From Erysipelotrichaceae bacterium (lineage in GTDB: Bacteria > Bacillota_I > Bacilli_A > Erysipelotrichales > Erysipelotrichaceae): DNA of 32,000 nucleotides. Every line of letters begins with the position of its first letter. Within the stretch, counting starts at the first letter, position 1. The stretch lies in NCBI GenBank assembly GCA_030604855.1, contig JAUVVC010000002.1, positions 90,001 to 122,000 on the forward strand, in the 5' to 3' direction. The notes under the pieces were generated by a model. It saw nothing but the letters and a program-made list of their open reading frames with translations, ran no database searches and was not told where the DNA came from. Below, piece after piece: positions 2,481 through 31,517 of this stretch. A program made the position numbers and the translations under genes.

Positions 2481-3164
2481 TCACTTTCTGCACTTGGATA
2501 CGAAATCATTGAAAAGTGCTTGGAACGGAGCGATTGCTGTCATTCGTTCCGGATGCCATTGTACGGCAAGGATACCATCGGTTTCAAGTGCTTCGACCAG
2601 ACCATCTTGTGCGTGGGCAGAGGCCATCAAGTTGGACGCAAGTTCTTTGATGCCTTGGTGATGATAACTGTTTACTTCAATCTTTGATCCAAGCAAGGTA
2701 TAAAGATGGGAATTCACATCCACTTCGATCCAATGACCTTTCAAAGGATCCTTATGGTTTAAACTATGGTTGTGATCCAAAGTGGTATCGGTTTGACTTG
2801 GAAGATCTTGGTATAAACTTCCACCGAAAGCCACATTGATGATTTGAAGTCCCCGGCAGATACCAAAGATGGGTTTCTTCTGTTCAGCCATGTAAAGGAT
2901 GGCTTCGATATCGAGTGTCTCAATCTCGTCTTCAATCGGGAAACTCCCATCATTCATTTCGGCATAGGTTATTGGGTTGACGTCATTCCCCCCTGGAACG
3001 AGCAAACCATCACAATGATCTAAGAAAAAATGAAGATTTTCAATCGACATGGGGGGGAGGATGATGCAGTCCGCACCAGCGTAGGTGAGACCATCGAAAT
3101 ACGCTTGATTCACGGTGTATCTTTCATCGTTGATACGGCTTAAAAGGGCGATTTTTGGTTTCAT
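2481..3164 (-). CDS. Class I glutamine amidotransferase, peptidase C26 / gamma-glutamyl-GABA hydrolase (PuuD-like) family
   Basis: 227 aa with GICRGLQIINVAFGGSLYQDL (nucleophile Cys elbow), SYHHQG and WHPE motifs. Confidence 0.85.
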   Translation of the reverse strand: MKPKIALLSRINDERYTVNQAYFDGLTYAGADCIILPPMSIENLHFFLDHCDGLLVPGGNDVNPITYAEMNDGSFPIEDEIETLDIEAILYMAEQKKPIFGICRGLQIINVAFGGSLYQDLPSQTDTTLDHNHSLNHKDPLKGHWIEVDVNSHLYTLLGSKIEVNSYHHQGIKELASNLMASAHAQDGLVEALETDGILAVQWHPERMTAIAPFQALFNDFVSKCRK

Positions 3165-5865: not shown

Positions 5866-5903
5866 AAAAAGCTGTAACCATGATTCGGTTACAGCTCTTT
5901 TTT
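5864..5903. terminator. Bidirectional rho-independent terminator between convergent AKR and hydrogenase genes
   Basis: A7 run (5864-5870), 9-bp stem GCTGTAACC (5871-5879) / GGTTACAGC (5887-5895), then TCTTTTTT (5896-5903). The T-tracts can be read on either strand. Confidence 0.85.
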
Positions 5904-7374
5904 AAGTGTTTTCGTGATGACGATGTACGTTGATGTCACTGAAGTCGTAAAGCTCCAAGGTCTGCTTGATCGTACGACTGAGATGGGGCGCATTCTCCTT
6001 GTCCACTTTCTGCTTGACCTTTGGGGTGTTGGTGATGACGGCGGGTCCGTTAGCACAACCGCCTTTACAGGACATACCTTCACAGATGCTTGCAGGGAAA
6101 CGACCTGCTTTGATGATCATCATGGCTTTCTTGCATTCATGGATGCCATCGGCATACTGAGCGGTGAATGCGAAATTATCATCTTCTTTGATGGCTTGAA
6201 CCAAAGCTTTGGAGACGCCGCCCCCAAAGGCGAAGTTGCGTGCGAAGATGCTGGCTTCGAGATTGGGTTGAGCTTCGAGTTCACTCAGGTAGATGTGTTG
6301 GGAGACCAACATTGCCGCGATTTCTTCGTAAGTCAAGACATAATCGACTTCTTGTCCATCCATGCCTTCTTGTTTCTTAGCGACGCAAGGTCCAATGAAC
6401 ACCACGGAATAGTCGGGATATTTCTTTTTGATATAGCGTGCCATCGCAACCATCGGTGATACCATGGTCGACATGTTTTTATGATAGACATCAGGATAAT
6501 GTTGGCGTGCGAGGTTGACGAATGCTGGACAACAGGAGGTCGTCATGGTCACATTCTCAGCCATCTTTTCACGCAATTCATCTTTTTCATACCAAGCAAC
6601 CACATCCGCGCCTACTGCGACTTCCACAACTTCGGCAAAACCGAGTTTTTTAATGCCCAGTTTGATTTGGTCTAAATTGGCACTGTCGAATTGTCCTTGA
6701 ATGGAAGGGGCGATCATGGCGACCGTAGGTTTACCTTCACGGATATCGTTGATGACATTGACGATCCAAGATTGATCTTCGATGGCTCCGAATGGACATG
6801 CGGATTGACAAGCAGCACAATTGATGCACTTTTCTTCATCGATGAGTGCGATGTTGTATTCATCGTATGAGATTGCATCGACCGCACAGGATGCCTTACA
6901 GGGACGCGGAGTATCAATGATCGCATTGAATGGACAAGCTTTTGCACAAGCCCCACATTCAACACATTTGTTGTAGTCGATGACCGCTCGATCTGCTCCA
7001 AAACTGATCGCATCAAATTTACAGGCTGTACGACAACTCTTGGCCATGCATTTACGACAGTTGTCTGTGATCAAAATTCTACGGATGGTACAACCATCAC
7101 AAGCGGCATCCAAGACCTTGACGATCTGCTTTGGACGTACCTTTTGGTCTTTCTTTACGGTAGGGCATTTTCCCATGGCGACACGGACACGTTGACGTAT
7201 GATTTCACGTTCTTTGTATACGCAACAGCGGAAATCGGCTGTCATGCCTGGTATCAACTTATACGCCATCTCATCGTCAAATTTGTCGGTGAGCGTGCCA
7301 TCGAAGGCTTTGATTGAAACTTCTCTTAATACATCGAATTTAAACTGTCTTGCCTCATGATCAAATAGTCCCAT
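5902..7374 (-). CDS. Monomeric [FeFe]-hydrogenase with multiple N-terminal 4Fe-4S ferredoxin-like clusters
   Basis: H-cluster signatures TSCCPAF (P1), GPCVAKKQE (P2) and EGMSCKGGCANGP (P3). Two canonical CxxCxxCxxxCP motifs plus additional Cys clusters. AAGGGGAA SD before the ATG at 7374. Confidence 0.9.
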   Translation of the reverse strand: MGLFDHEARQFKFDVLREVSIKAFDGTLTDKFDDEMAYKLIPGMTADFRCCVYKEREIIRQRVRVAMGKCPTVKKDQKVRPKQIVKVLDAACDGCTIRRILITDNCRKCMAKSCRTACKFDAISFGADRAVIDYNKCVECGACAKACPFNAIIDTPRPCKASCAVDAISYDEYNIALIDEEKCINCAACQSACPFGAIEDQSWIVNVINDIREGKPTVAMIAPSIQGQFDSANLDQIKLGIKKLGFAEVVEVAVGADVVAWYEKDELREKMAENVTMTTSCCPAFVNLARQHYPDVYHKNMSTMVSPMVAMARYIKKKYPDYSVVFIGPCVAKKQEGMDGQEVDYVLTYEEIAAMLVSQHIYLSELEAQPNLEASIFARNFAFGGGVSKALVQAIKEDDNFAFTAQYADGIHECKKAMMIIKAGRFPASICEGMSCKGGCANGPAVITNTPKVKQKVDKENAPHLSRTIKQTLELYDFSDINVHRHHENT

Positions 7375-19594: not shown

Positions 19595-20419
19595 ATGAAA
19601 AAAATCGCTTTGTATGGCTTCAACAACCTTACAAAAACATGTAGTTTCAATATTTATGACATCTGTTATGCTAAAACAGAAGAAGAACGAAAAGAATATT
19701 TGGCCTATATTGATGAACAATATAATTCAACGCGCTTGACCAAGATTCTTACGGACGTCACAGGGTTGATTGGAGCGCATGTCTTGAATATCGCAAAACA
19801 AGACTATGATCCCCAAGGCGCCAGCGTGACCATCTTGATTAGCGAAGAACCGATCGATGAAAAGTATTTGGATGCGTCCTGTAATGTGGCAAAATTAGAG
19901 AATGGCGTGGTGACTCCCCGTACGGTCTTGGGTCACTTGGACAAGAGCCATGTGACGGTGCATACCTATCCGGAATATCATCCCAATCATGAGATCTCAA
20001 CCTTCAGAGTCGACATCGATGTATCGACCTGTGGTCGTATCTCACCGCTTAAGGCCTTGGATTATCTCATTGCCAGCTTTGATTCCGATATCATTACGAT
20101 TGACTATCGTGTGCGTGGTTTCACACGGGGCTTGGATGGGAAGAAATTCTTTATCGATCATGACATCAACTCGATTCAAAACTTCATAGCTAAACCAACT
20201 TTGGAGCGTTATCACAAGATCGATGTGAATGTATATGAATCCAATATTTTCCATACCAAGATGATGCTAAAAGAGATTAATCTTGAAAATTATTTGTTTA
20301 CCAGTGAAATTGATTCGATCAGTGAGGATGACCAAGCTCAAATGGTTGAGCTCGTCCACCATGAGATGACCGAGATTTTCAATGGACGCAATATCTATAC
20401 AAAGGAGGAAGAGGCTTAA
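19595..20419 (+). CDS. speD: S-adenosylmethionine decarboxylase proenzyme, long E. coli-type (class 1B)
   Basis: Near-collinear with E. coli SpeD as I recall it: [41 protein letters not shown], self-processing site [14 protein letters not shown], and DYRVRGFTR. Confidence 0.88.
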
Positions 20420-21279
20420 TGGATCTTTGGTACAGTGAATTCCATGCGGATACAGTCAAGTTTTCAATTCAAATTGAGAAACAATTGTTAAGTAAAAAAA
20501 GTTCTTTCCAGCAGATTGATGTGTTTGAGTCCAAAGAGCTTGGACGCTTCTTCACACTCGATGGCTATGTGATGATCACCGAGAAAGATGAGTTCATCTA
20601 TCACGACATGATCGTGCATGTGCCGATGCATGTGAATCCAAAAATCAAGAAAGTATTGGTTATTGGAGCAGGTGATGGGGGTACGGTTCGTGAATTATGT
20701 CGCTACCCTCATATAGAACATATTGACATGGTTGAAATCGATGAGATGGTCGTTCAGGTTTGTGAGGAATACTTCCCCATTACCGCAAGTAAATTGCGTG
20801 ACCCACGTGTTCATCTTTATTTTGAAGATGGCTTGAAATTCGTCGCGAACAAGAAGAATGCCTATGATCTGATCATCGTGGATTCCACCGATCCCTTTGG
20901 GCCAGGTGAAGGCTTGTTCACACGCAGTTTCTATCAAGACTGTCATGCGGCTTTGAATGAGAAGGGGATTTTGGTCAATCAACACGAAAGTCCTTTCTAC
21001 GATCATTATCGAAAAAACATGCAGCGGGCACACAAGCGCATTGTGGAGACCTTTGCGATTGCGAAGGTCTATCAAGCTTTTATTCCGACTTATGCTTCTG
21101 GGCACTGGTTGTTTGGCTTCGCAAGTAAGCATTTCGATCCGATCTTGGATTTCAAAGCGGATGCTTTTAAAGCGTTGGATTTAAAGACCAGGTATTACAA
21201 TGAGGACATTCATCGTGCTTCATTCGCACTGCCAAATTATGTTAAAGAGGCTTTAGCTGAAGGATTGAAAGATGAGTAG
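20419..21279 (+). CDS. speE: Spermidine synthase (aminopropyltransferase)
   Basis: VLVIGAGDGGTVRE, VEIDEMVV and DSTDPFGPGEGLF motifs. TAATG overlap with speD. Confidence 0.92.
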   Translation: MDLWYSEFHADTVKFSIQIEKQLLSKKSSFQQIDVFESKELGRFFTLDGYVMITEKDEFIYHDMIVHVPMHVNPKIKKVLVIGAGDGGTVRELCRYPHIEHIDMVEIDEMVVQVCEEYFPITASKLRDPRVHLYFEDGLKFVANKKNAYDLIIVDSTDPFGPGEGLFTRSFYQDCHAALNEKGILVNQHESPFYDHYRKNMQRAHKRIVETFAIAKVYQAFIPTYASGHWLFGFASKHFDPILDFKADAFKALDLKTRYYNEDIHRASFALPNYVKEALAEGLKDE

Positions 21280-21988
21280 TCTGAATACCATTCTATTTGA
21301 TTTGGATGGGACCTTATTGCCGATTGATGGTCAAGCGTTTGAACAGATCTATTTTGGCAATTTGGCAAAACAATTCATGGATGTTTATGAACCCAAGACC
21401 TTGATTCAATTGATCTGGTCGGCGACCAAAGCGATGGTCAAGGACACCAGTGAACGAACCAATGAAGTTGTCTTCATGGAAAACCTACAACAGCTTGTTG
21501 GTTCGGATATCACATGGATGCAAACGCGTTTCGAACGTTTCTATGAAACGGATTTCGATCATTTACGTGCGGCTGTCACACCCAATCCGAATATCTTGGA
21601 AGCGGTTAGGATTTTAAAGGAAAAAGGTTATCAGTGCGTCATCGTGACCAATCCGATGTTTCCTAAGCTGGCGATTGAGAAGCGGATCGCGTGGACGGGT
21701 TTGAATCGTGATGATTTCAGCTATGTGACTTCGTTTGAGAAGAATACAGCCTGCAAACCTCAGTTGAAACTTTATGAGGAAGTCTTAAGAGAATTGGATT
21801 TGAGTGTTGAAGAGTGTATGATGGTCGGCAATGACATCGAAGAAGATATGGTTGTGGCGAAGATGGGAATGGATCATTACTTGATCACCAATCATGTCAT
21901 GCAGGAGGATGTCATTCCTGATTTCGTGAAAAGATCTGGTGATTATGCGGATTTCTTAAATTTTGTGAAGGAACTTAAACCTCTTTAA
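21272..21988 (+). CDS. HAD-IA family hydrolase
   Basis: Motif I LFDLDGTL, motif II VTNP, motif IV VGNDIEEDM. 8-nt overlap with speE. Confidence 0.8.
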   Translation: MSSLNTILFDLDGTLLPIDGQAFEQIYFGNLAKQFMDVYEPKTLIQLIWSATKAMVKDTSERTNEVVFMENLQQLVGSDITWMQTRFERFYETDFDHLRAAVTPNPNILEAVRILKEKGYQCVIVTNPMFPKLAIEKRIAWTGLNRDDFSYVTSFEKNTACKPQLKLYEEVLRELDLSVEECMMVGNDIEEDMVVAKMGMDHYLITNHVMQEDVIPDFVKRSGDYADFLNFVKELKPL

Positions 21989-22005
21989 TTGAAGAGGTTT
22001 TTCTT
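21977..22005 (+). terminator. Rho-independent terminator after the speD-speE-HAD operon
   Basis: AAACCTCTT (21977-21985) / AAGAGGTTT (21992-22000), 6-nt loop containing the TAA stop, then TTCTT. Confidence 0.7.
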
Positions 22006-22045
22006 GAGCTGAAAAAAGGGTATGATTGTGATAGGAGGATACCAT

Positions 22046-22444
22046 ATGCCCTTGATCAAACATACGCCACACAAATCGTCGATGGGAATTCAAGCGAATA
22101 TCGTTATCTTAATCATATGGTTTGGAGGCTTTGTCGTCAGTCTCATCGAGCCGATTGCGATGTTTGCCTTCGCGGTTCCTTTTGTGATTCTATTCTTAGA
22201 GAAGGACAGTAATTTGGTTCGCTCACATGCGATCCAAGCAATCAGTCTGTACATCATCAACATCATCTTGAGTATCCTGTTGACGGTCATTCCTTTTTTG
22301 GTGTTTTTATTCTTCATCGTTGCCATTGTAGAATTGGCGTTGATCGTCGTTGCGGCATTCAAAGGCTGGTATTATCATGAATATGAACTGCCTTTGATCC
22401 AACCCTTGGCAAAATGGGTCAGTAGTGTCTTTTTAAGAGTCTGA
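22046..22444 (+). CDS. DUF4870-like small integral membrane protein
   Basis: 132 aa with 3-4 TM segments and the LEKDSNLVRSHAIQAISL motif that I associate with DUF4870. ATG at 22046 follows an AGGAGGA SD. Confidence 0.6.
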   Translation: MPLIKHTPHKSSMGIQANIVILIIWFGGFVVSLIEPIAMFAFAVPFVILFLEKDSNLVRSHAIQAISLYIINIILSILLTVIPFLVFLFFIVAIVELALIVVAAFKGWYYHEYELPLIQPLAKWVSSVFLRV

Positions 22445-22469
22445 TAGAAAGTGATTCATCTGTGTGAAC

Positions 22470-23840
22470 ATGAAACCAATTCGATATACCTTTGCGTTTG
22501 TCGTGAGTCGACTTACGATCATCGCTTTAAGAATCCTAGGTCGTAACGGAACGCATTTTCCGGGTGCGGTCGCGATGCGCTTGTGTCCCGATTTCATCCA
22601 ACATCTCCCCCAACCTAAGAAGTTGATTGCCATCACGGGAACCAATGGCAAGACGACGGTGACCAATCTTGTCAGTGATGTGCTAAAGAATGCCGGCTAC
22701 AGCTTGTCCAACAATGCCATGGGATCGAACATCCAAGAAGGCATCATCGTGACGGCGATTTTAGCGAGTTCTTTTTTCGGAGATAAAAGTGTTGTGGATG
22801 TGGTGGTGTTGGAAGTGGATGAGCGGATATCCCCCCGGATCTATCCTTATTTGAAACCGGATGTTCTGATCGTGACCAATCTGTTTCGGGATTCCTATCG
22901 ACGCAATGCGCATGTTGAGTTCATTCAGATGATGTTGGAACAAGCCATTCCTTCACACACGCAATTGATTGTGAATGCGGATGATCCCATCAGTTCTTTT
23001 CTATGTCCTGGCAATCCCCGGATCAGTTTCAGCTTGAAAGCTTTGGAAGGTGAGGAGCAAATCAAAGACAGTCGCATCGTTGATTTAGTTTACTGTCCGA
23101 AGTGTCAAAGCGAATTGAATTATGATTTCCAACGTTACCATCATATCGGACAAGTTCATTGTCCAAGTTGTGATTTCAAATCGATGTATCCGGATATCGA
23201 AGCAAACATCAACCATAAAAAGCTCAATGTTCAATACATGAATCAAAATCTAAGTTTCGATGTCTTGGGTGATAATCCAACCGATCATTACAATCTTTTA
23301 GCGAGCATTGCTTTGTTCAGTGTCTTGGGCTTTGATCTTGAAGGAATTCAAACAGAGTTGAACAAGCTCAAGATTGTCAAGACACGTTTCGATCAAGTCG
23401 AAGTCAAAGGGAAACAGATCACGATCATGATGACCAAGGATCAGAATCCGATTGCGACTTCACGTATCTTTGATTACATTCGTCACCAAAACGATCGCAA
23501 ATGCGCTTTGATTCTGATCAATGAGAACAGTGAGCATCATACTTTGAGTGAAAACAATGCTTGGTATTACGATACGGATTTTGACTATTTGAAACAGGAT
23601 CATGTCCTACAGATCATTGGGGGTGGACATCGTATCTTGGATTTGAAAGTCAAAATCGCTTTGACGGGCATTCCCTTAGATCATTATCGTTCGACTTCAA
23701 ATGAGTTGGACACATCCAGACTTGTGGATCTTGACTTGGTCGATGCGATCTATATTTTGAATGGAACCAAAAACATTCCTGAAGCCAAACAGATTCGCAA
23801 GCACTTGATAGAACGAATCGAAGCGGAGGTGCAGGCATGA
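22470..23840 (+). CDS. murT: MurT-like Mur-ligase family protein (lipid II isoglutaminyl synthase ligase-subunit homologue)
   Basis: P-loop ITGTNGKTTVTNL, VTNLFRDS, NADDP and the MurT-specific Cys4 ribbon CPKC...CPSC, plus a DUF1727-like C-terminus ending in WYYDTDFDYL. The start is ATG 22470 (GTG 22464 is possible), with no clear SD. Confidence 0.8.
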   Translation: MKPIRYTFAFVVSRLTIIALRILGRNGTHFPGAVAMRLCPDFIQHLPQPKKLIAITGTNGKTTVTNLVSDVLKNAGYSLSNNAMGSNIQEGIIVTAILASSFFGDKSVVDVVVLEVDERISPRIYPYLKPDVLIVTNLFRDSYRRNAHVEFIQMMLEQAIPSHTQLIVNADDPISSFLCPGNPRISFSLKALEGEEQIKDSRIVDLVYCPKCQSELNYDFQRYHHIGQVHCPSCDFKSMYPDIEANINHKKLNVQYMNQNLSFDVLGDNPTDHYNLLASIALFSVLGFDLEGIQTELNKLKIVKTRFDQVEVKGKQITIMMTKDQNPIATSRIFDYIRHQNDRKCALILINENSEHHTLSENNAWYYDTDFDYLKQDHVLQIIGGGHRILDLKVKIALTGIPLDHYRSTSNELDTSRLVDLDLVDAIYILNGTKNIPEAKQIRKHLIERIEAEVQA

Positions 23841-24550
23841 TCATCGAAATGCTTTATCCTGAAATCGCCAGTCTGTATGGTGAGAAAGGGAACTTGGATT
23901 TATTGAGACTTTGCTTTCCGGAAGCTGAGTTTAAAATGACAAAGTTGAATGAGGAGCCTTATTTTGTGAAACATCCGGTGGATCTGATCGTGATGGGCCC
24001 AACAACAGAGGATTTTCAAAAACACATCATCAAACGATTGACTCCCTATGTAGATCGTATTCAAAACCTGATCGATGCGAACGTACATTTCTGGATGACG
24101 GGCAATGCGATGGATCTCTTTGGGAAATTCATTGAAGATGAAGAGGGGAATCGTTTCTTAGGCTTGGGTTTGTTTGACTATCACGCTCGTTTGTATCGTC
24201 CTAAGCGCTTCAATTCTTATGTATTGGGTAAGGTTCAAAATATGGAAGTCATTGGTTTCAAGAGCCAGTTCAGCCAGATATTCTCGACCCAAGAATTGAA
24301 TTCATGGCTCAAAGTGGAACGTGGTTTTGGATTGAATGAGAAGACAATGGAAGAAGGCATCAAAGTTCATAATTTCATTGGAACACAGTGCTTAGGACCA
24401 TTTTGGATCTTGAATCCAGACTTTACGCTTTTGTATTTCAAAGAACTGGGTTATGCGAATGACGAGCTTCCGTTCCATGCGGAGATGATGGATGCTTATC
24501 GTCAACGTGTTTTAGAGTTCAAAGATGAGAAATTCATCAATTATCCATGA
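23837..24550 (+). CDS. GatD-like (CobQ/GATase_3-type) protein lacking the canonical Cys/His; probable pseudo-glutaminase partner of the MurT-like ligase
   Basis: 237 aa with an ATGA overlap on the MurT-like gene. Collinear with my recollection of S. aureus GatD (DLIVMGP.. vs DIFFIGGG, GFKSQ vs GFENH, EGIKVHNFIGTQCLGP vs EGIHYKNLLGTYLHGP). The nucleophile elbow reads WMTGNAMDLFG and the His position reads Leu. Confidence 0.7.
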   Translation: MIIEMLYPEIASLYGEKGNLDLLRLCFPEAEFKMTKLNEEPYFVKHPVDLIVMGPTTEDFQKHIIKRLTPYVDRIQNLIDANVHFWMTGNAMDLFGKFIEDEEGNRFLGLGLFDYHARLYRPKRFNSYVLGKVQNMEVIGFKSQFSQIFSTQELNSWLKVERGFGLNEKTMEEGIKVHNFIGTQCLGPFWILNPDFTLLYFKELGYANDELPFHAEMMDAYRQRVLEFKDEKFINYP

Positions 24551-30416: not shown

Positions 30417-30508
30417 GCACGGTTACCCATATTCTACCATAAAAGACATTGAGCAAAAAGACTCCTTCTTTATTAAAAAGATCGTATAATAAGTGTAAGG
30501 AGGAAGTG

Positions 30509-31051
30509 ATGATGAAACTTCATATCCATGGAAAGAATGTGACGATTACCGAAGCAATGCTTCAAACCACACAGAAGAAACTCTCGTTTCTCGAGAAGTA
30601 CTTCTTGATCGATGAGGACACACCTGCAAATGTCTCCGTAAAGGTGTATCCGAATAGTTTGAAGGTTGAGGTGACGATTTTAAGTAAAATTGCCATCTTG
30701 AGAGCAGAGGTGTCACACGAAGATTATTATGCGGCGATCGATCTTGCGATTGATAAACTTGAAGATCAGATCCGTCGTCAAAAAACGCGTCTCTCGCGTA
30801 AGCATCGCGAGAAATTATCGAAGGCGTTCATTGAACAAATCGATAAGACCGATGAGGTGAAACCGATTGGGGTTGTGAAGACGAAGACAATCAGTGCGGA
30901 GGTCATGAGTTTGGATGATGCGATCATGCGCATGGAAATGTTGGGTCACTCTTTCTTCATTTATACGGATGAAGAGGAACACCAGATGGCGGTTGTCTAC
31001 AAACGTTTGGATGGCGGCTATGGTTTATTGGAGACAAGTCCAGCAAAATAA
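30509..31051 (+). CDS. hpf: Ribosome hibernation-promoting factor, long form
   Basis: 180 aa: MKLHIHGKNVTITEAM...KLSFLEKYF (S30AE/YfiA domain) and a C-terminal dimerisation domain (MSLDDAIMRMEMLGHSFFIY). AAGGAGGAA SD. The track 5' extension is rejected. Confidence 0.9.
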   Translation: MMKLHIHGKNVTITEAMLQTTQKKLSFLEKYFLIDEDTPANVSVKVYPNSLKVEVTILSKIAILRAEVSHEDYYAAIDLAIDKLEDQIRRQKTRLSRKHREKLSKAFIEQIDKTDEVKPIGVVKTKTISAEVMSLDDAIMRMEMLGHSFFIYTDEEEHQMAVVYKRLDGGYGLLETSPAK

Positions 31052-31055
31052 AGTC

Positions 31056-31080
31056 AAGGATGGGAAACCATCCTTTTTTT
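31056..31080 (+). terminator. Rho-independent terminator after hpf
   Basis: AAGGATGG (31056-31063) / CCATCCTT (31068-31075), GAAA loop, T-run to 31080. Confidence 0.85.
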
Positions 31081-31121
31081 GTGTCATTAGTGCTATACTA
31101 AAATGTGTTGGAGGAAATGAT

Positions 31122-31517
31122 ATGGGAATGCTTAATAAAGTAAAAAACTTTTTTAATCCAGTCGAGGAAGAACTTGAATTGGATGAACAGGAAGCCGCTC
31201 GTTTGAGCGACTATGAAGAACCAACGAACAAACAATTCTCTAAAGTCAGTATGGATACCAAGATGGTTTTATTTGAACCACGTACCTTTGATGAAGCGGA
31301 AGAAGTTGCGCGTCATCTCAAGGATCGTCGTGCAGCCGTCGTCAATCTACATCGTTTGAATCGTGAATATGCACAACGTACGATTGATTTTCTAACGGGT
31401 GTGGTCTTTGCGTTGGATGGTTCGATTCAAAAAATCGGACACAATGTCATCTTGTGTGCACCCAAGAGTGTGGGTGTCCATGGCAAGATTTCAATCGAGG
31501 GTGAAGAAGACAATTAG
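31122..31517 (+). CDS. sepF: Cell division protein SepF
   Basis: 131 aa: MGMLNKVKNFF... then the conserved core VLFEPRTFDEAEEVARHLKDRRAAVVNL...AQRTIDFLTGVVFALDGSIQKIG. GGAGGAAA SD and a TGCTATACT extended -10 at 31091-31099. The track ORF's upstream extension overlaps hpf and the terminator and is rejected. Confidence 0.9.
   Translation: MGMLNKVKNFFNPVEEELELDEQEAARLSDYEEPTNKQFSKVSMDTKMVLFEPRTFDEAEEVARHLKDRRAAVVNLHRLNREYAQRTIDFLTGVVFALDGSIQKIGHNVILCAPKSVGVHGKISIEGEEDN

Follow-up and report, generated by a model that had tools for sequence, protein, structure and literature searches.

Which amine can a MurT/GatD-type enzyme use when its glutaminase subunit no longer carries the residues that release ammonia from glutamine? 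This question is raised by two adjacent genes in a 32,000-nt stretch of DNA (the window, to whose positions all coordinates refer) from Erysipelotrichaceae bacterium GCA_030604855.1, contig JAUVVC010000002.1, positions 90,001 to 122,000 of the forward strand. One gene encodes a MurT-like ligase and the other a GatD-like protein. Staphylococci, pneumococci and mycobacteria cannot do without MurT/GatD, which is a drug target. Amidation of D-Glu shapes peptidoglycan cross-linking (PMC3266927, PMC6113224, PMC6085368) and the innate immune sensing of peptidoglycan (PMC11132681).

A preliminary description of the window, made from the sequence, had suggested that the pair may no longer generate ammonia from glutamine and that it could attach either free ammonia or another amine to D-Glu in lipid II. 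Judged by sequence, the pair is a MurT/GatD-type heterodimer from a separate subfamily that is widespread and uncharacterised. That this family makes no ammonia from glutamine by the known mechanism is well supported. Our preferred reading, to which we give a probability of roughly 0.4, is that the pair acts as a lipid II D-Glu ligase independent of glutamine, with the GatD-like subunit as a pseudo-glutaminase scaffold and, most likely, free ammonia as the amine.

The pair is related to MurT and GatD in sequence and fold

The two genes and their junction are as follows.

22470..23840, + strand: MurT-like ATP-dependent ligase gene (456 amino acids from ATG 22470, the same start as in public gene calls)
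23837..24550, + strand: GatD-like, predicted pseudo-glutaminase gene (237 amino acids)
23837..23840, + strand: ATGA start/stop overlap of both genes (junction sequence)

The list of open reading frames (ORFs) also offers an alternative GTG start for the ligase at 22464. The junction reads GGCATGATC, with the ATG at 23837 overlapping the TGA at 23838-23840, and the ATGA overlap noted in the preliminary description was confirmed. Adjacent, translationally coupled genes are also found for MurT/GatD (Enzyme Commission (EC) number 6.3.5.13) of Staphylococcus aureus, Streptococcus pneumoniae, Streptococcus pyogenes and Mycobacterium tuberculosis.

The ligase matched the Pfam families Mur_ligase_M (PF08245; score 41 against a gathering threshold of 24) and MurT_C (PF08353; 49.4 against 25), and the GatD-like protein matched GATase_3 (PF07685; 37.7 against 27). 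In phmmer searches the ligase aligned with S. pneumoniae and S. aureus MurT over about 410 residues (E 1e-41), and the GatD-like protein reached the solved GatD chains at an E value of only 6e-07. By sequence, the nearest solved proteins come from the S. aureus, S. pneumoniae and S. pyogenes complexes: MurT chains for the ligase and GatD chains for its partner. AlphaFold2 models of both subunits were built on family alignments. The top 13 matches of the ligase model (predicted local distance difference test (pLDDT) 89.0) in the Protein Data Bank (PDB) were all MurT chains, from three MurT/GatD complexes, at about 24% identity. The GatD-like model (pLDDT 93.6) was best matched by S. aureus GatD (6gs2_A; template modelling score 0.86, root mean square deviation 2.6 Å, 17% identity), and fold comparison indicates that the class-I glutaminase fold of GatD is kept. 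The ligase has the architecture of MurT, with a short N-terminus and no UDP-binding domain, a Mur central domain, a Cys4 ribbon and MurT_C.

The glutaminase residues of the GatD-like subunit are replaced

Five features of the GatD-like gene bear on its catalytic site.

24095..24124, + strand: former nucleophile elbow MTGNAMDLFG, with Gly89 at the position of S. aureus Cys94 (S. pneumoniae Cys107)
24386..24400, + strand: QCLGP segment, with Leu186 at the position of S. aureus His189 (S. pneumoniae His206)
23996..24004, + strand: G54-P55-T56, which replaces the oxyanion-hole GGG (hhalign)
24254..24271, + strand: GFKSQF motif, which replaces GFENH(G/Q), with FENH becoming F141-K142-S143-Q144
24206..24208, + strand: Arg124, the kept equivalent of Arg128 (S. 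aureus) / Arg142 (S. pneumoniae); Arg in 333 of 347 sequences

Residue equivalences come from an hhalign comparison of a 28-sequence family alignment with S. aureus and S. pneumoniae GatD, which was gapless through the nucleophile elbow (probability 99.6%, E 8e-24). Profile alignment, which the preliminary description had proposed as a check, places Cys94 on Gly89, His189 on Leu186 and Asp349 of MurT on Asn362, and no conserved Cys or His was found at the catalytic positions. MAFFT and hmmalign also pair Cys94 with Gly89; phmmer puts Cys94 on Thr88 by way of a one-residue gap, and no alignment method yields a Cys. Around the elbow, hhalign sets Asn90-Ala91 against Gly95-Gly96 and Asp/Glu93 against Gln98. 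The stretches quoted earlier (MTGNAMDLFG, QCLGP and the ligase loop at 23520-23561) match our translations exactly.

These replacements extend through the family. Among 347 distinct GatD-like sequences, column 89 is Gly in 327, Ser in 15, Asn in three and Ala or His in one each, with no Cys at all. Column 186 is Leu, Ile, Val or Thr, and a single sequence has His there. Not one of the 347 has both Cys and His at the catalytic columns, so neither chance nor a sequencing artefact explains the loss in the window; the top 150 representatives do not have the two residues together either. At the former oxyanion hole, column 55 is Pro, Ser, Ala or Thr and column 56 is Met, Thr or Leu. The family motifs of this subunit are TGN(A/S)xE and GFKSQF.

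In characterized MurT/GatD, GGG is the proposed oxyanion hole and Arg128/Arg142 captures glutamine, and the proposed ammonia path has a Tyr plug and acidic gate residues (PMC6085368). Besides Arg124, the variant pair keeps the aromatic plug Tyr14, D/E16 and the gate residues Asp205 and Asp368. The GP motif after the former His position is kept as well. The former glutamine pocket is uniform across very different clades, a pattern more in keeping with one small ligand shared by all than with a variety of amino acids.

We considered whether the pair could still depend on glutamine, either through unconventional residues such as Cys185 or through ammonia supplied by a separate glutaminase. The window protein has only two Cys, Cys26 and Cys185, neither at the elbow, as had been described. 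Cys185 (24389-24391) lies directly before the former His position and is conserved in the Erysipelotrichaceae clade, a sister clade reads His-Cys at 184-185, and both Arg124 and D/E16 are kept, all of which would suit such dependence. However, Cys185 is found in only 29 of the 347 sequences, all from the Erysipelotrichaceae clade, and so cannot explain the family; the oxyanion GGG is gone and no alternative dyad is conserved. We regard continued use of glutamine as very improbable.

Two specific candidates were rejected. Cys185 as a relocated nucleophile fails on its clade-specific distribution. A dyad of Thr88/Ser with Lys142 was set aside because both positions are non-catalytic in part of the family: Thr88 is replaced by Val, Ile or Phe in some members and Lys142 by Arg, Gln or Thr in others.

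The ligase keeps its catalytic core and has remodelled loops

The following features were located in the ligase gene.

22638..22655, + strand: P-loop GTNGKT (amino acids 57-62), with G60, K61 and T62 invariant in the family
22812..22826, + strand: Mg2+ and acceptor site E115-V-D117-E118, equivalent to S. pneumoniae MurT E110, D112 and E113 and invariant, followed by Arg119
22887..22913, + strand: remodelled active-site loop RDSYRRNAH (amino acids 140-148), which replaces canonical RDQMDRFGE
23094..23171, + strand: Cys4 zinc-ribbon insertion C209, C212, C231 and C234 (CPKC...CPSC), all four invariant
23520..23561, + strand: C-terminal-domain loop NENSEHHTLSENNA, with Glu361-Asn362 in place of (R/I)-Asp349/355

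In MurT, binding of ATP and Mg2+ and handling of the acceptor carboxylate fall to the P-loop Lys and Thr, Asn85, Glu110, Asp112-Glu113, Asn132, Arg135, Asp136, Arg140, Arg304 and Lys321-Asn322-Pro323 (Morlot et al., PMC6085368). All of these are present in the ligase. K61, T62, N87, E115, D117, E118, N137, R140, D141, R145, R306, K323, N326 and P327 are invariant in the 81-82 family ligases compared. The NADDP motif is at amino acids 169-173 and, like the P-loop and the Cys4 ribbon, is intact as first described.

Beyond these residues, 35 of 96 family-conserved ligase positions are unlike both solved MurTs. Arg119 (22824-22826), the residue right after the Mg2+ ligands, never varies within the variant family; the solved MurTs have Gly or Ala there. 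Arg332 (23463-23465) is also family-invariant and is absent from both. In the remodelled active-site loop, S142, N146, A147 and H148 (His148 at 22911-22913) do not vary within the family, and each is unlike the residue in either solved enzyme. The family motifs of the ligase are NLFRDS(Y)(R/K)RNAHxEF and (S/T)ENxAW. MurC-F likewise have a conserved His in the active-site loop that is absent in canonical MurT (PMC6085368), and from loop position only, His148 may correspond to the Mg2+-binding His of Mur ligases. Unlike MurC-F, the variant ligase has no UDP-binding N-terminal domain and has a zinc ribbon and a GatD-like partner.

Asn362 replaces the third residue of the triad, Asp349 of S. aureus and Asp355 of S. 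pneumoniae MurT, and is preceded by a loop with three residues more than the solved enzymes have. Across 82 family ligases this column is Asn in 73, Thr in six, Val in two and Phe in one, and never Asp. The loop had been called longer and free of Asp. This holds in the window's clade, to which the Asp-free loop is confined, but not family-wide: other clades read DDLHEAANGSEN, and what stays constant is Glu361, the same in all 81 genome-locus ligases, with a residue other than Asp after it. The broader claim, that all three triad positions are replaced together next to an intact ligase, holds across the whole conserved family.

Published mutants show what such changes do. S. aureus GatD C94G loses glutamine-dependent amidation and keeps NH3-dependent lipid II amidation at pH 8.5 (PMC3266927). 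GatD C94S abolishes activity and MurT D349N severely reduces it, and neither unfolds the proteins (PMC6113224). Because the natural family combines changes that abolish or severely reduce glutamine-dependent activity in these mutants, the earlier claim that the pair draws no ammonia from glutamine is well founded.

We also asked whether the acceptor could be something other than lipid II D-Glu, such as the epsilon-carboxyl of meso-diaminopimelic acid, a C-terminal D-Ala or a non-peptidoglycan polymer. Only the ATP, Mg2+ and generic acceptor-carboxylate residues can be checked, more than a third of the conserved ligase positions are unlike the solved MurTs, and the gene context is mostly housekeeping, which would leave room for another substrate. 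Yet MurT outranks pMurC and MurC-F by a wide margin as the nearest relative in sequence and fold, the truncated N-terminus, zinc ribbon and MurT_C are kept, and cell-wall genes neighbour the pair in several clades. A different acceptor therefore seems improbable.

The pair belongs to a conserved, discrete family

A profile search of 1.84 billion representatives returned 367 clusters (50% identity) at E <= 1e-30. In a pattern scan of one genome per species, relatives were found in at least 277 GTDB species of Bacillota, a lower bound since the pattern GFKSQF skips members with GFKTQF or GHKTQF. Homologue searches at E <= 1e-10 gave 114 GatD-like and 845 MurT-like proteins, with the variant type throughout among the best 120 listed. 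No Negativicutes were among the matches listed. The nearest relatives are from metagenome-assembled genomes (MAGs) of Erysipelotrichaceae (84-52% identity), and the rest are mostly from MAGs of gut 'Clostridia' such as Clostridium sp. CAG:245. Named members include the cultured Frisingicoccus caecimuris and MAGs labelled Coprococcus sp., Lachnospiraceae, Lentihominibacter, Eubacteriaceae and Erysipelothrix sp.

In all 80 genome loci compared, the ligase and GatD-like genes lie side by side, and no canonical murT-gatD pair was found within 10 kb of the pair in these 80 loci. Four proteins of 698-758 amino acids (P0280, P0300, P0318 and P0397) are single-chain fusions of the variant ligase and the GatD-like domain with linkers of about 20-60 residues, and one of them, P0300, matches both MurT and GatD models. 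Against three orthologues, the ratio of nonsynonymous to synonymous substitution rates (dN/dS) was 0.03-0.075 for the GatD-like gene and about 0.05 for the ligase gene, with dS saturated. The GatD-like protein combines lost catalytic residues, purifying selection and a conserved partnership, which are the marks of a pseudoenzyme, and by its sequence it is a conserved pseudo-glutaminase under strong purifying selection.

The loss of all glutaminase catalytic residues could also be expected of a decaying or non-functional murT-gatD remnant. Such decay is hard to square with the low dN/dS, the 367 clusters with new invariant motifs, the strict adjacency, the fusions and the intact frames. We find it hardly credible, and as far as sequence evidence reaches it is refuted.

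The GatD-like subunit shares about 17-20% identity with the solved GatD proteins, and the ligase about 24% with the solved MurTs. The pair does not reach the cut-offs of the NCBIfam equivalog models NF045635, NF052464, NF045636 and NF052463: the window ligase scored 165 and 161 bits with the MurT models (cut-off 800), and the window GatD-like protein 38 and 32 bits with the GatD models (cut-offs 400 and 450). Eight members that were tested scored 165-224 bits against 800 with the MurT models and 38-66 bits against 400-450 with the GatD models, and the variant family is covered by no curated model. NCBI names members only 'MurT ligase domain-containing' or DUF1727 proteins because they score below the equivalog cut-offs. 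UniRef calls the F. caecimuris ligase (P0482) 'Lipid II isoglutaminyl synthase (glutamine-hydrolyzing) subunit MurT', which is probably an over-annotation, and the variant pair should not be filed under EC 6.3.5.13. The authors of the preliminary description knew of no system of this kind. We likewise found none in the searchable literature, where we looked for a Cys-less GatD family, a MurT paralogue for type-B walls and a polyamine ligase.

Two tandem variant pairs are present in Frisingicoccus, both in a MAG (locus L045, 7268-11477) and in the cultured type strain of F. caecimuris, GCA_004340975.1 (locus L086, 10001-13952). In the second ligase copy the P-loop is degenerate (GTGGKV), the acceptor Asn has become Lys and the RDS..RNAH loop is missing. 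From these residues, this copy may itself be inactive.

Comparison with known enzymes

In common with MurT/GatD, the variant pair has the MurT architecture, the ATP, Mg2+ and acceptor residues, the GatD fold, the equivalent of Arg128/142, the Tyr plug and D/E16. It differs in the Cys, the His, the oxyanion GGG, the MurT Asp and the equivalog scores. It also has a rebuilt 135-143 loop with a gained His, an invariant Glu before Asn362, Arg119 and Arg332. The nearest experimental likeness is the S. aureus MurT/GatD-C94G complex, which also has Gly at the nucleophile position (Münch et al. 2012, PMC3266927). That complex still forms, still requires GatD and uses only NH3 in vitro. C94G is an engineered single substitution whose activity with NH3 is confined to pH 8.5, whereas in the natural family the whole pocket, the interface and a ligase loop have been rebuilt.

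Archaeal MurT-like and pMurC ligases of pseudomurein producers are MurT-clade relatives that work without a glutaminase (PMC11915815; PDB 6vr7), and pMurC is the next-best NCBIfam and fold match of the ligase after MurT. For the archaeal MurT-like genes a GatD partner is missing altogether, whereas in the variant family the partner is always present and conserved. The glutaminase (GATase) domain of carbamoyl-phosphate synthetase I (PDB 5dot) is a distant fold match of the GatD-like model, at ranks 45-46. Carbamoyl-phosphate synthetase I is ammonia-specific and keeps a glutaminase-fold module without the catalytic Cys. It is an unrelated ATP-grasp synthetase in a single polypeptide, and the analogy is one of principle only.

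Free ammonia and other candidate amines

The proposed mechanism starts from what sequence, profile and fold comparison establish: the GatD-like subunit keeps its fold without the nucleophile Cys, the His and the GGG, and the ligase is without the triad Asp. The ligase, with its ATP, Mg2+ and acceptor residues kept, should still form an acyl-phosphate. By homology, the acceptor is rather probably the alpha-carboxylate of D-iGlu in lipid I or lipid II. More tentatively, the nucleophile would be free ammonia, taken up without glutamine hydrolysis. The product would then be ordinary D-iso-glutamine, made in ammonia-rich anaerobic habitats.

The GatD-like subunit would be an obligatory structural and gating partner that stabilises MurT, by analogy with the S. 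aureus C94G complex in vitro. This scaffold role, put forward in the preliminary description, has a direct precedent, as C94G keeps NH3-dependent activity while MurT alone is inactive with any donor and needs GatD structurally (PMC3266927). We favour free ammonia because the C94G complex behaves in this way and because carbamoyl-phosphate synthetase I offers a parallel. We also favour it because gut and digester habitats are ammonia-rich, the pocket is uniform, and the Tyr plug and gate residues are kept.

Several observations weigh against ammonia use. At pH 7.5, ammonium is not a substrate of the S. aureus enzyme (PMC3266927). A mere scaffold should drift at its dead pocket, yet new residues are fixed there (N90, E/D93, K/R142, S/T143, Q144 and F145). 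The ligase has new invariant residues at or near the active site (R119, S142, N146-A147-H148, R332 and E361), and the two new Arg together with the kept carboxylate-binding Arg124 would suit a nucleophile that bears a carboxylate. By its sequence the variant family is an old, discrete lineage and not a set of recent sporadic losses; identity to the solved enzymes is low and the equivalog scores are only a quarter to a tenth of the cut-offs. Peptidoglycan genes were near the pair in only two of the 81 closest loci, the window included.

This remodelling would be expected if the pair carried out a new peptidoglycan chemistry, in which an amino acid or diamine, not ammonia, is ligated to the D-Glu alpha-carboxylate on lipid II. 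Examples would be the first residue of a type-B (2-4) cross-bridge, Gly or a diamine substituent. The remodelling is coordinated and fixed in both subunits (Arg119, Arg332, His148 and Glu361 in the ligase; K/R142 and the kept Arg124 in the ex-glutamine pocket). Mur-family enzymes are amino-acid ligases by ancestry, and Frisingicoccus has tandem second pairs. Type-B walls, with cross-bridges on the D-Glu alpha-carboxylate, are described in Erysipelotrichaceae/Erysipelothrix and Eubacteriaceae lineages, and members of the family are found in MAGs labelled Erysipelotrichaceae, Erysipelothrix sp. and Eubacteriaceae. To our knowledge, the genetics of the type-B (2-4) wall chemotype is not known. 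The C-terminal-domain loop of MurT corresponds to the residue-selecting motif of MurE (PMC6113224), and in the window's pair this loop is three residues longer and re-patterned.

However, the pocket is nearly identical across clades, whereas type-B bridges vary between taxa. Most carriers are gut Clostridia and Lachnospiraceae without a reported type-B wall, and the type-B link drawn in the preliminary description, which the labels of some carriers fit, is only suggestive. Published models place the GatD site about 20 Å or more from the ATP gamma-phosphate even when closed (PMC6113224), too far for direct attack by an amino acid in that site. In Frisingicoccus, the P-loop of the second ligase copy is degenerate and the acceptor Asn of this copy is lost. 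In the loci examined, no racemase or amine-biosynthesis gene is consistently linked, and the window and six related loci gave no Rfam match to a riboswitch or RNA leader. On balance, ligation of another amine is a serious rival, to which we give a somewhat lower probability than to free ammonia. Slightly more doubtful is the specific proposal that the ex-glutaminase pocket (Arg124, K/R142, N90 and Q144) and the ligase loops (Glu361, His148, Arg119 and Arg332) bind or gate an amine donor for ligation of something other than NH2.

Whichever amine is used, a large sister family in at least 277 species, among them abundant gut Lachnospiraceae and Erysipelotrichaceae, would stand outside the textbook glutamine mechanism. 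If it is ammonia, the pair would be an unambiguous example from nature of a pseudo-glutaminase retained for a structural role, and wall amidation would be tied to the gut ammonia supply. If another amine is ligated, a gene would have been found for a wall modification without a known enzyme, and the activity would be new. The question is directly testable, as F. caecimuris is cultured and carries the pair.

Genomic neighbourhood of the pair

Two features lie just upstream of the ligase gene.

21977..22000, + strand: terminator-like hairpin after the HAD hydrolase gene (10-bp stem, -10.8 kcal/mol, z -3.4 against shuffles, then UUUCUU)
22022..22444, + strand: small membrane protein gene (Pfam DUF4870), 20-25 nt 5' of the ligase gene and 3' of the hairpin

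The HAD stop codon lies inside the hairpin and a U-rich tract follows directly 3'; a consensus terminator scan did not flag the hairpin at 21977..22000. It is a probable 5' boundary of the transcription unit. The DUF4870 gene is 132 amino acids long in public gene calls, with a start at 22046. It is found at the same position in six Erysipelotrichaceae loci, is specific to this clade and may be co-transcribed with the ligase gene. A terminator had been said to part speD-speE from the pair. The terminator-like hairpin agrees with this, and the DUF4870 gene, which lies between the hairpin and the ligase gene, has to be added. The DUF4870 protein may be a membrane partner of the MurT-like/GatD-like pair.

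Further 5' of the pair are a fatty-acid synthesis cluster, an acyltransferase gene, speD-speE and the HAD hydrolase gene; on the 3' side are a flavo-diiron-type protein gene and alanine dehydrogenase. The order speD-speE-HAD-DUF4870-murT'-gatD' is kept in the Erysipelotrichaceae clade only, so the suggested link to polyamines is weak and amounts to lineage synteny at most. The speD-speE genes (19595-21279, + strand) and a Peptidase_C26/class-I GATase gene (PuuD-like gamma-glutamyl hydrolase; 2481-3164, - strand) form a loose set of polyamine genes near the ligase.

In the Clostridia clade the neighbours are housekeeping genes (aspS, mnmA, rlmN and prpC-prkC-rsgA-rpe). The pair lies between rodA/M23 and minCDE-PBP2-mreDCB in a MAG labelled Eubacteriaceae, between two S11 DD-carboxypeptidase genes in a Coprococcus-like contig, and close to vanY in F. 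caecimuris. These peptidoglycan-gene neighbours argue for a wall role in some clades.

Elsewhere in the window, the listed ORFs for a ribosome hibernation factor (S30AE; 30449-31051, + strand) and SepF (30915-31517, + strand) overlap by about 135 nt. Because the SepF domain starts only at residue 118 of the listed ORF, translation of SepF probably begins at a more 3' position. A gene for a [FeFe]-hydrogenase large subunit that has ferredoxin domains (5902-7374, - strand) fits a strictly anaerobic host.

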